A DNA stretch of 17,600 nucleotides from a virus: UHGV virus genome UHGV-0195027; one strand, 5' to 3'. Shown here one piece after another: positions 7,465 to 7,743 of the stretch (within the stretch, counting starts at the first letter, position 1; each line of letters begins with the position of its first letter). Below the pieces are notes generated by a model. It was not told the DNA's origin and ran no database searches. It worked only from the letters and a program-made list of their open reading frames with translations. Both the position numbers and the translations under genes were made by a program.

Positions 7465-7743
7465 TTACTTGTTCCACTCAGTCAGAATTTGGTTACTAAC
7501 TTCATCTGAGAGATTGTACCAATAAGCTGAGTTATTGGTTGCGTCTACAACAATAAGCTTATCATCACTATCCATGACCGCCCTCACAATTTTGGCTGCA
7601 TCCTCGGCAGAGTAACTACAGTTAACATACCAGTTCGATTCAGTTGTTAAAGCCCAATTTCCTAAAGATTTAATTGCATCATACACAGCCGCATAATCTT
7701 TCGTTTTAATGAGGTCGTAAGTAATAAATAAATTATTAGCCAT
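7465..7743 (-). CDS. hypothetical 92-aa protein in prophage cargo locus; ferredoxin-like pattern with N-terminal ITYDL motif
   Basis: ATG 7741-7743 with GGGAGA 7 nt upstream. AT-rich, about 38% GC. Alternating hydrophobic-strand and amphipathic-helix segments. Stop is followed by hairpin ttaaaggggg/ccccctttaa (7441-7467). Confidence 0.6.
   Translation of the reverse strand: MANNLFITYDLIKTKDYAAVYDAIKSLGNWALTTESNWYVNCSYSAEDAAKIVRAVMDSDDKLIVVDATNNSAYWYNLSDEVSNQILTEWNK

Follow-up and report, generated by a model that had tools for sequence, protein, structure and literature searches.

A very probable solo member of the Cas2 superfamily among the cargo genes of a P2-like prophage

What does a protein of the Cas2 kind do where no CRISPR system surrounds it? 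The question is raised by a gene for 92 amino acids (aa) in the UHGV virus genome UHGV-0195027, of which we analyzed a stretch of 17,600 nucleotides (nt), hereafter the window. An earlier note on this DNA had described the product as a cargo protein with a weak, pattern-level resemblance to Cas2 and VapD-type small nucleases. To our knowledge, Cas2 is universal in CRISPR systems and its enzymatic activity there is without an established role; the proposed origin of Cas2 from toxin–antitoxin (TA) nucleases rests mainly on VapD. Work on a large stand-alone family with this fold, which the searches below put at ~2,500 clusters, could reveal the role of the Cas2 fold in the absence of CRISPR. As set out in the following, the protein of the window is very probably a solo member of the Cas2 superfamily that belongs to a distinct, mobile, stand-alone clade; a toxic or defensive role is a candidate reading that we put forward tentatively.

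That the open reading frame (ORF) is a real gene, as the earlier note had taken it to be, is borne out with the minus strand as its coding strand: It runs from ATG (start codon 7743-7741) to stop (7467-7465), and the protein segments quoted in that note, namely MANNLFITYDL, DYAAVYDAIKSLG, NWALTTESNWYVNCS, AEDAAKIVRAVMDS, and KLIVVDATNNSAYWY, are its exact translation, whereas a plus-strand reading of the same interval was rejected because stops occur throughout. A word-indexed search retrieved 161 close homologues, nearly all of 92–93 aa, and an exhaustive hidden Markov model (HMM) search, run against 1.84 billion cluster representatives, put 2,487 clusters (50% identity) at E≤1e-3 and 419 of these at E≤1e-10. 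In a codon comparison with homologues, synonymous sites are saturated (pS 0.75–0.95) vs. nonsynonymous divergence of pN 0.13–0.26, and dN/dS is 0.14 for the closest homologue pair; judged from these substitutions, the ORF is under strong purifying selection. A GGAGA motif stands in enterobacterial homologues at the position equivalent to the Shine–Dalgarno sequence of the window. The family is spread over many phyla and keeps 45–60% identity across them, which speaks for a universal target, e.g. nucleic acid, over a fast-evolving host protein.

The AlphaFold2 model of the protein (36-sequence alignment) reached a predicted local distance difference test score (pLDDT) of 92.9 and a predicted template modeling score (pTM) of 0.83, and it bears out the alternation of strands and helices that had been read from the sequence: Strands (E) and helices (H) occupy E3-10, H17-25, E28-34, E37-42, H46-54, E62-67, E72-76, and H80-89, in the order β1-α1-β2-β3-α2-β4-β5-α3. 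When this model was compared with the PDB by Foldseek, as the earlier note had proposed, BPSL1038 of Burkholderia pseudomallei came first (E 5.8e-3, template modeling (TM) score 0.57), followed by many Cas2 chains of types I, II, and V; no PDB match fell below E 1e-3. The VapD–VapW structure 9KAN ranked 28–33 (E 0.07–0.09), and a fold search of BFVD returned uncharacterized proteins only, all at E of at least 5e-3. At the level of the single sequence, the matches to Cas2 are colinear: Residues 6-70 align to positions 4-68 of the 74 in Pfam CRISPR_Cas2 with E 0.15 and 12.7 bits, which is below the curated cut-off of 23.8 bits, and residues 4-80 align to positions 2-78 of the 89 in PADLOC Cas2_II with E 0.019. 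The protein also matches PHROG 1090 (function unknown) at 1e-24, and a search of NCBIfam with it gave no match.

It is the relatives of the protein that decide the matter. When 148 diverse representatives of the family were scanned singly, Cas2 was the sole recurring Pfam family, found in nine of them at E<0.01 (best 8.6e-7), and every other Pfam family was matched by just one representative. A tblastn search of phage genomes with the protein of the window uncovered genes of ~34% identity in temperate phages of Staphylococcus, Enterococcus, Clostridium, and Mannheimia, many of which carry a 'Cas2' annotation; among them, gp35 of Staphylococcus phage SN8 exceeds the Pfam Cas2 threshold (29.4 vs. 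23.8 bits). The family profile in turn matches SN8 gp35 with 98.4% probability (E 8e-15), phiFL1A gp05 with 99.1%, and the Mannheimia protein with 99.5%. Because relatives tied to the family profile at 98–99% pass Pfam's Cas2 cut-off, this transitive sequence evidence establishes the kinship with Cas2 with high confidence. The resemblance to Cas2 claimed in the earlier note thus stands, in fold and in homology; to VapD, there is no significant sequence match. A PDB-wide profile search with close and broad profiles yielded nothing significant, with BPSL1038 at E 0.84, and hhalign of the family profile against the type I-E Cas2 of Escherichia coli detected no similarity (probability 0.1%).

How the fold might be put to use is suggested by its conserved residues. 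In the close homologues (n=36), N3, N4, L5, Y9, D10, L11, Y17, G28, W30, A31, S36, Y39, D58, D61, and W90 are invariant. Across the 148 representatives, conservation amounts to 95% for D61, 91% for I24 and G28, 85% for N4, 84% for Y9, 75% for S36 (with a further 10% threonine), 72% for D10 (with a further 8% glutamate), and 64% for D58. The aspartate that is asked of a Cas2 at the C-terminal end of β1 is present as D10 of the ITYDL motif, and within the ferredoxin topology (strand order 4-1-3-2) it shares one sheet edge with S36 in the β2-β3 turn and with D58 and D61 at the start of β4. In BPSL1038, the proposed active site of D11 and S33/T34 is placed at the same sheet edge (PMC10491678). The conserved acidic pocket is compatible with metal-dependent catalysis. 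Some members are natural fusions of two domains in tandem (P0154, P0167, P0169, P0179, and P0249; 207–262 aa), with a degenerate copy at the N-terminus and a C-terminal one that retains D61 without D10; such fusions hint that the protein works as a dimer. Two tandem copies of the domain are also inserted at residues 365-549 of P0144, a Baseplate_J-like protein of 1,507 aa that additionally carries a carbohydrate-binding module, CBM_5_12; here, both copies have YDL and the D61 equivalent.

The setting of the gene is that of phage cargo. A P2-like prophage contributes the right half of the window with its tail region, whose gene order matches that of the intact prophage of E. coli M172-1 (L001), and the larger ORFs of the window are all P2 tail genes, IS21 genes, fimbrial or regulator fragments, or fieF (Table 1). 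The prophage is a truncated remnant, since an IS21-family element interrupts the tail-fibre gene. A cargo island of 2.2 kb with the 92-aa gene, a DUF3606 gene, and a 230-aa gene separates the tail-fibre assembly gene from the sheath gene, and this slot is the Z/fun locus of P2, where variable, non-essential genes are found between the assembly gene G and the sheath gene FI. The earlier note had placed the protein in a defence hotspot, and with this locus that placement proves right: Vassallo et al. 2022 (PMC9519451) identify the fun locus as a second hotspot at which P2-like phages are enriched in defence genes. The P2 hotspot of Rousset 2022 was rejected as this site, since it is the old/tin locus. 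The note's further statement that CRISPR context is lacking is likewise correct for the window, in which repeat, Rfam, and ORF scans revealed no CRISPR array, no spaced direct repeats, no cas gene, and no Rfam family; nor does the window hold a second Cas2/VapD-like ORF. Assignment of the island to any catalogued defence system, including Rst_3HP, was rejected as well, its three proteins having given only weak PADLOC matches to Cas2_II and PDC-M03B.

Identical DNA occurs in the 'Z-region' deposit of P2-EC53 (AJ512682, early 2000s), where the 92-aa ORF is unannotated, and in the viable phage R18C (ORF23/24), whose authors took the two short ORFs in the place of fun(Z) for rare morons, their function being unknown and PSI-BLAST uninformative (PMC6823313). 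The 230-aa gene is divergent from the DUF3606 and Cas2-like genes and is missing from the other genomic contexts of that pair; it is apparently an independent moron outside the pair, and the P2-EC53 record (2002) labels it 'putative lysogenic conversion protein' ORF1. A GC-rich hairpin directly past the stop codon of the Cas2-like gene likely marks the 3' end of the cassette. The inverted repeats annotated as flanking in P2-EC53 were not recovered by a repeat finder within 7200-9450. To the left of the IS21 element, window positions 1-4100 are DNA unrelated to P2.

Table 1. Features of the window in order of position; coordinates count from its first letter.
Feature	Coordinates	Strand	Details
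K88/F4-type fimbrial subunit fragment	34-381
Lipoprotein-like ORF	881-1267
313-aa coiled-coil-like ORF			49-nt internal direct repeat, copies 1472-1520 and 1577-1625, 105 nt apart
GyrI-like ORF	3228-3629
AraC-family fragment	3675-3959
IS21-family element	istA 4140-5681, istB 5693-6442		inserted in the P2 tail-fibre gene
Tail-fibre C-terminal remnant	6464-6715		last 83 codons of the P2 tail-fibre gene
Tail-fibre assembly gene (Caudo_TAP)	6717-7244		Pfam
GC-rich hairpin (AAGGGGGCTATCCACCCCCTTT)	7441..7462	plus (as called)	terminator scan; directly past the stop codon of the 92-aa gene
92-aa stand-alone gene, very probably Cas2 superfamily	7465..7743	minus	92 codons; stop codon included in the coordinates
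Shine–Dalgarno sequence GGGAGA	7750..7755	minus	6 nt upstream of ATG; read from sequence
Terminator-like hairpin GAGCGCC-TTTCTA-GGCGCT + T-run	7761..7790	minus	between the DUF3606 and Cas2-like genes; terminator scan
DUF3606 gene	7796-7975 (longest ORF to 8014)	minus	59 aa from MADDKT; Pfam PF12244, E 4e-18; 180 nt in RefSeq
230-aa cargo gene	8467-9159	plus	N-terminal transmembrane helix; phrog_11802, E 1e-146, function unknown; no Pfam family
Strong terminator-like hairpin (AGGCGGGCAGATTGCCCGCCT + T-run)	9290-9320	plus	between the 230-aa gene and the sheath gene
Sheath gene	9419-10609		then tube, tape measure, gpU, gpD, and the chromosomal gene fieF

We compared the genomic company of the family's members in 47 loci (one genome per species), 39 loci from IMG/VR, and 80 from metagenomes, supplemented by exact-protein look-ups; 94 loci remained after de-duplication. 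Neighbour clustering in the 47 and then in the 94 non-redundant loci identified no universal partner gene, and three apparent neighbour families (1, 2, and 9) of the 47-locus clustering were discarded, being antisense shadows that the gene itself casts. When 133 flanking ORFs were scanned with Pfam and PADLOC, 114 and 106 families, respectively, were returned, and these ORFs include complete Thoeris systems, restriction enzymes of types II, IIG, and III, Lamassu LmuA, Dsr2, SIR2, the toxin YhaV, and SMODS + SLATT. ImmA/IrrE-type peptidases of prophage immunity regions accompany the gene in 10 of the 94 loci, and a PARIS-like AAA_15 ATPase together with DUF4435 in five. In temperate phages of Staphylococcus and Enterococcus, the gene stands between cro and the antirepressor gene but in the opposite orientation to these two, like the integrase, cI, and ImmA genes, which is the classic position of a moron expressed in lysogeny. 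The 'Cas2' names borne by homologues from Vibrio, Halomonas, and Pseudomonas were rejected as evidence of CRISPR, since those homologues have no CRISPR neighbours.

A convergent DUF6538-type tyrosine integrase follows the gene 30–70 nt downstream in 18 of the 94 loci, which take the form of a compact ~9-kb island by tRNA-Thr; only one capsid gene is present there, along with that of a ~615-aa protein. The commonest enterobacterial homologues are the last cargo gene of this ~9-kb tRNA-Thr element (L062-L071, L072-L075, L076:6700-15550), whose inventory comprises a lambda-E-type capsid gene, a 65-aa ORF, the ~615-aa 'TolA-like' protein, and the convergent integrase; the element may be a capsid-encoding phage satellite. 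Two further settings share the presence of DUF927/Toprim primases in the element: In Pseudomonas and a metagenome contig (L197, L202-L204), a divergent AAA_15 + DUF4435 pair lies about 190–270 nt from the gene, and in Halomonas (L199-L200), the gene precedes SMODS + SLATT_4.

On these grounds, we propose the following account, whose starting point, the cargo setting, is shown and whose further steps are conditional. The Cas2-like gene is a moron, i.e. accessory cargo of the P2-like prophage, and sits in the Z/fun hotspot. It points against the late tail operon, for which reason its expression would probably come from the lysogen, and this expression would probably be low, since transcription must read through the hairpin after the DUF3606 gene. 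By analogy with Cas2, VapD, and BPSL1038, the protein would then act as a homodimer, in which the D10/S36/D58/D61 cluster would bind metal or water and cut nucleic acid. Such cutting might arrest growth or destroy incoming DNA or RNA, with superinfection exclusion, abortive infection, or maintenance of the element as the result. The claims within this account differ in strength: That the protein is a toxic or defensive effector of some kind is a serious candidate, if one short of probable; the account taken whole, a dimeric growth-arrest or anti-phage effector of the nuclease type, is offered as our leading, though tentative, reading by analogy with the relatives just named; and that the chemistry is nucleolytic through D10/D61 we consider somewhat doubtful.

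Several observations weigh against this account. With an isoelectric point (pI) of 4.26 and a net charge of −6, the protein would be unusual for an enzyme acting on nucleic acid, and the family as a whole has a median pI of 5.8, with values above 8 in only 9% of its members. D10, the putative catalytic aspartate, is replaced in about 20–28% of the representatives and in the tandem-domain forms. Position 32, a lysine in at least 90% of the close homologues that aligns with the DNA-clamping R30 of BPSL1038, is a leucine here. No candidate antitoxin recurs across the 94 loci, which is awkward for a constitutively toxic protein. Moreover, CRISPR adaptation does not need the nuclease activity of Cas2 itself. 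For BPSL1038, finally, the evidence of nuclease action consists of metal-independent plasmid nicking, and the section consulted describes no catalytic-mutant control (PMC10491678).

Among the alternatives, the first concerns the small gene that precedes the Cas2-like gene. The DUF3606 gene is co-oriented with it, 52 nt upstream, and its product is a possible partner of the Cas2-like protein. The same pair is present in P2-EC53 and R18C and in 102 of 5,426 complete E. coli genomes, where it is chromosomal in every case (22 further E. coli genomes have a diverged Cas2-like copy alone), and it recurs in a different, integrase-bearing island, whose Cas2-like product is 76% identical to that of the window. 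In Enterobacterales, a small, hydrophilic, co-oriented gene nearly always stands 52–61 nt upstream: It encodes DUF3606 (window, Pantoea, R18C, integrase island), a lysine-rich peptide of 42 aa ('TGQFV...TTV.ETIK'), or DUF2188. Whichever of these three unrelated genes comes first, an AGCGCC/GGCGCT stem with a T-run, then GGAGA, then ATG are kept (L003-L008, L050, L062, L067). The hairpin occurs in five of six enterobacterial loci vs. none of 40 others, against a background of 5% in random windows; its stem is nearly invariant though the loops vary, so that no covariation could be counted. As no sigma-70-like promoter was found between hairpin and ATG, we infer that expression of the Cas2-like gene depends on read-through and reaches only a fraction of that of the small gene. 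Such a level would suit the ratio of a toxin to its antitoxin or of an effector to its regulator, and it equally fits two stacked morons.

The Cas2-like protein might accordingly be read as the toxin of a two-gene TA or toxin–regulator module, in which the small upstream protein would neutralize or repress it and the terminator would set an excess of antitoxin. The co-oriented small gene 52–61 nt upstream, which the window shares with L003, R18C, P2-EC53, and the integrase islands, argues for such a module, as do the conserved hairpin and Shine–Dalgarno sequence between the two genes, the movement of the pair as a unit between the P2 hotspot and a different integrative element, and the filling of one slot by three unrelated small-gene families, which recalls VapX, VapY, and VapW for VapD (PMC11980593). 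Of the 94 non-redundant loci, 15 have the 42-aa peptide ahead of the gene and six have DUF3606 there. Outside Enterobacterales, however, neither upstream partner nor hairpin is found, and a Yersinia variant lacks both; an intergenic terminator is atypical of type II TA operons, DUF3606 has no known function or solved relative, and the small ORFs could be independent morons, each with its own terminator. On balance, we judge a dedicated TA module to be unlikely.

An anti-defence protein without catalytic function deserves the same degree of scepticism. It would act by binding, for instance as a Cas2 decoy that sequesters Cas1 and thereby blocks spacer acquisition, or as an inhibitor of another defence protein. 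The protein is small, acidic, and encoded by phages and other mobile genetic elements, D10 is dispensable in part of the family, and the established role of the Cas2 fold is that of a structural subunit of the Cas1–Cas2 integrase. Against a decoy speak the dissimilarity of the family profile from the E. coli type I-E Cas2 (the hhalign value of 0.1% given above) and a C-terminus that forms an amphipathic helix ending in a conserved Trp, not a Cas1-binding tail. The retention of 45–60% identity across distant phyla and the presence in chromosomal defence islands are, moreover, unlike the fast evolution and narrow range of anti-defence proteins. Two relatives are embedded in type I-E operons, which would favour a decoy, but 92 of the 94 non-redundant loci have no I-E cas genes nearby.

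These two relatives merit description in their own right. A tblastn search of all loci with the Cas proteins of E. coli K-12 found cas genes near a family member only in L012 and the metagenome contig L174. In both, the solo gene lies between cas3 and casA (cas8e) on the same strand of a type I-E operon (L012:7516-8273, L174:2653-3298), and L012 additionally carries its own cas1-cas2 plus an array in which at least 19 repeats recur every 61 nt. Since the DNA of the two loci is only ~66% identical and their solo proteins 57%, the arrangement is old. Just after cas3, both loci carry two degenerate, repeat-like hairpins 61 nt apart, i.e. a one-spacer mini-array whose spacing matches the period of the real array. 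The pseudo-spacer of L174 has a 17-nt exact run (22/32) with a site 218 nt upstream of the gene, where shuffling reached a maximum of 11, and with ATA instead of the canonical AAG at the position of the protospacer adjacent motif (PAM); in L012, no match goes beyond chance. A 24-nt block, CGCACCGGTAGCACAGTGATGTTA, is identical in the two loci 70–95 nt upstream of ATG, in frame with the gene, and is present in no other locus of the collection; an Rfam scan of L174 gave no match. L012 (NZ_JBGQOM010000006.1) is titled Flavobacterium sp. W21_SRS_FM6, yet with E. coli K-12 it shares 75% identity in Cas1 and 79% in Cas2. For a Flavobacterium this is odd, and it points to horizontal transfer or to a contig assigned wrongly.

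Type I-E loci commonly have mini-arrays of this kind in their cas3-cas8 gap, where they guide Cascade to repress cas8 or a toxin-enriched cargo (PMC10120712; CreR preprint), and for type I-F of Acinetobacter, creA and a small phage-derived protein toxin, CreP, are described in that gap (bioRxiv 2024.01.05.574328). The parallel, which draws on two loci and one imperfect spacer match, is suggestive. Extended to the whole family by analogy, it would picture stand-alone, toxin-like Cas2 relatives that mobile elements and CRISPR loci deploy as single-gene 'guard' effectors: The Cascade-repressed copy would be the type I-E analogue of CrePA, and the P2 copy the free-living form, serving abortive infection or addiction. 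We regard this extension as improbable in its entirety; if true, it would show in a living case the descent from toxins that has been proposed for Cas2.

Two explanations fare worse still. The protein might be a regulatory ferredoxin-like domain that binds a small ligand or metal, such as ACT or MTH1187, and serves as a sensor or sponge, its likeness to Cas2 reflecting nothing but shared ancestry of the fold; the sequence profiles, however, lead to Cas2 (in the nine of 148 members mentioned above) and to neither ACT nor MTH1187, scores of phage members exceed the Cas2 threshold, and Foldseek (3Di+AA) puts Cas2 and BPSL1038 first, so that a ligand-binding role is quite improbable. An accessory protein of the virion or tail, structural or binding, is brought to mind by the position among tail genes, by the satellite-like islands in which the gene follows the capsid gene and that of the ~615-aa protein in the same orientation, and by the two inserted domain copies and the CBM_5_12 module of P0144, but it can be given hardly any credence, as the gene lies on the strand opposite to the P2 late operon in a Z/fun slot that holds non-essential cargo, the Gram-positive phage copies sit in the immunity region and not in a structural module, and many copies reside in non-phage chromosomal islands.

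The tentative account of a nuclease-type effector is open to direct work, for the gene is tractable: It is 92 aa long and native to E. coli, a viable phage, R18C, carries it, and it offers obvious point mutants. If the protein is an anti-phage or addiction effector, it would constitute a very small single-gene defence system and account for a slot that lacks annotation in ~2% of complete E. coli genomes. Should it be inert or regulatory, this would correct the automatic label 'CRISPR-associated endonuclease Cas2' on phage and bacterial homologues without CRISPR context.

It remains to compare the family with the systems it resembles. With Cas2 (PF09827/TIGR01573), it shares the aspartate at the end of β1, colinear, full-length, sub-threshold HMM matches, and relatives at or above the Pfam threshold. 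It differs from Cas2 in that no cas1, other cas genes, or CRISPR array lie nearby, in the additional β5 and the C-terminal helix α3 that ends in the conserved Trp, in its acidic nature as opposed to the basic Cas2, and in its most conserved polar residue, which is D61 and not the β1 aspartate. VapD (VapXD, VapYD, VapWD) has in common with it a Cas2-related fold, an occurrence either stand-alone or with a small upstream partner, and carriage by mobile elements; homologues of VapD are nuclease toxins, found alone or in TA pairs (PMC11980593). In contrast to VapD, however, the model lacks the extra helices in the β1-α1 and α2-β4 loops, no significant sequence match exists, and the upstream genes are DUF3606, the 42-aa peptide, or DUF2188 in place of VapX, VapY, or VapW. 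The likeness to CreP/CrePA lies in L012 and L174, which occupy the cas3-cas8 gap behind two degenerate repeats as does the CRISPR-repressed CreP of type I-F; CreP itself is an unrelated KilA-C domain protein, and the gene of the window stands outside any CRISPR locus. The family falls outside CRISPR Cas2 by context and threshold, outside VapD by partners and apparently by structure, and outside the BPSL1038 family by profile.

In our search of the literature, no paper was found that recognizes or characterizes the family of this protein. What was already known is that its DNA and ORF have been in databases for two decades, that some homologues bear automatic 'Cas2' labels, and that a solo Cas2-like protein, BPSL1038, has been crystallized. 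The P2 Z/fun morons, i.e. fun(Z), the P2-EC53 Z-region, and R18C ORF23/24, share the slot with the gene, and the Cas2-like fold went unrecognized in those reports. BPSL1038 (PDB 7VXR), assigned to the 'Cas2/VapD nuclease sub-family' (PMC10491678), shares the long C-terminal α3 (H80-89 in our model). Its motif D11(X20)SST aligns here with D10 and E35-S36 (TESNWYV vs. SSTAWYL), at a spacing of X25. Specific kinship with its family was nevertheless rejected at the sequence level, as hhalign gave 55.6% for the family profile against the single BPSL1038 sequence but 3.3% for profile against profile. Homologues of BPSL1038 (P0270-P0377) occur only in Burkholderiaceae, at no less than 62% identity, and are kept in reduced endosymbionts (Candidatus Vallotia, Mycetohabitans), which suggests a housekeeping and not a mobile role. 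BPSL1038 is thus a narrow, vertically inherited gene of Burkholderiaceae, whereas the family represented in the window is horizontally mobile cargo in many phyla.

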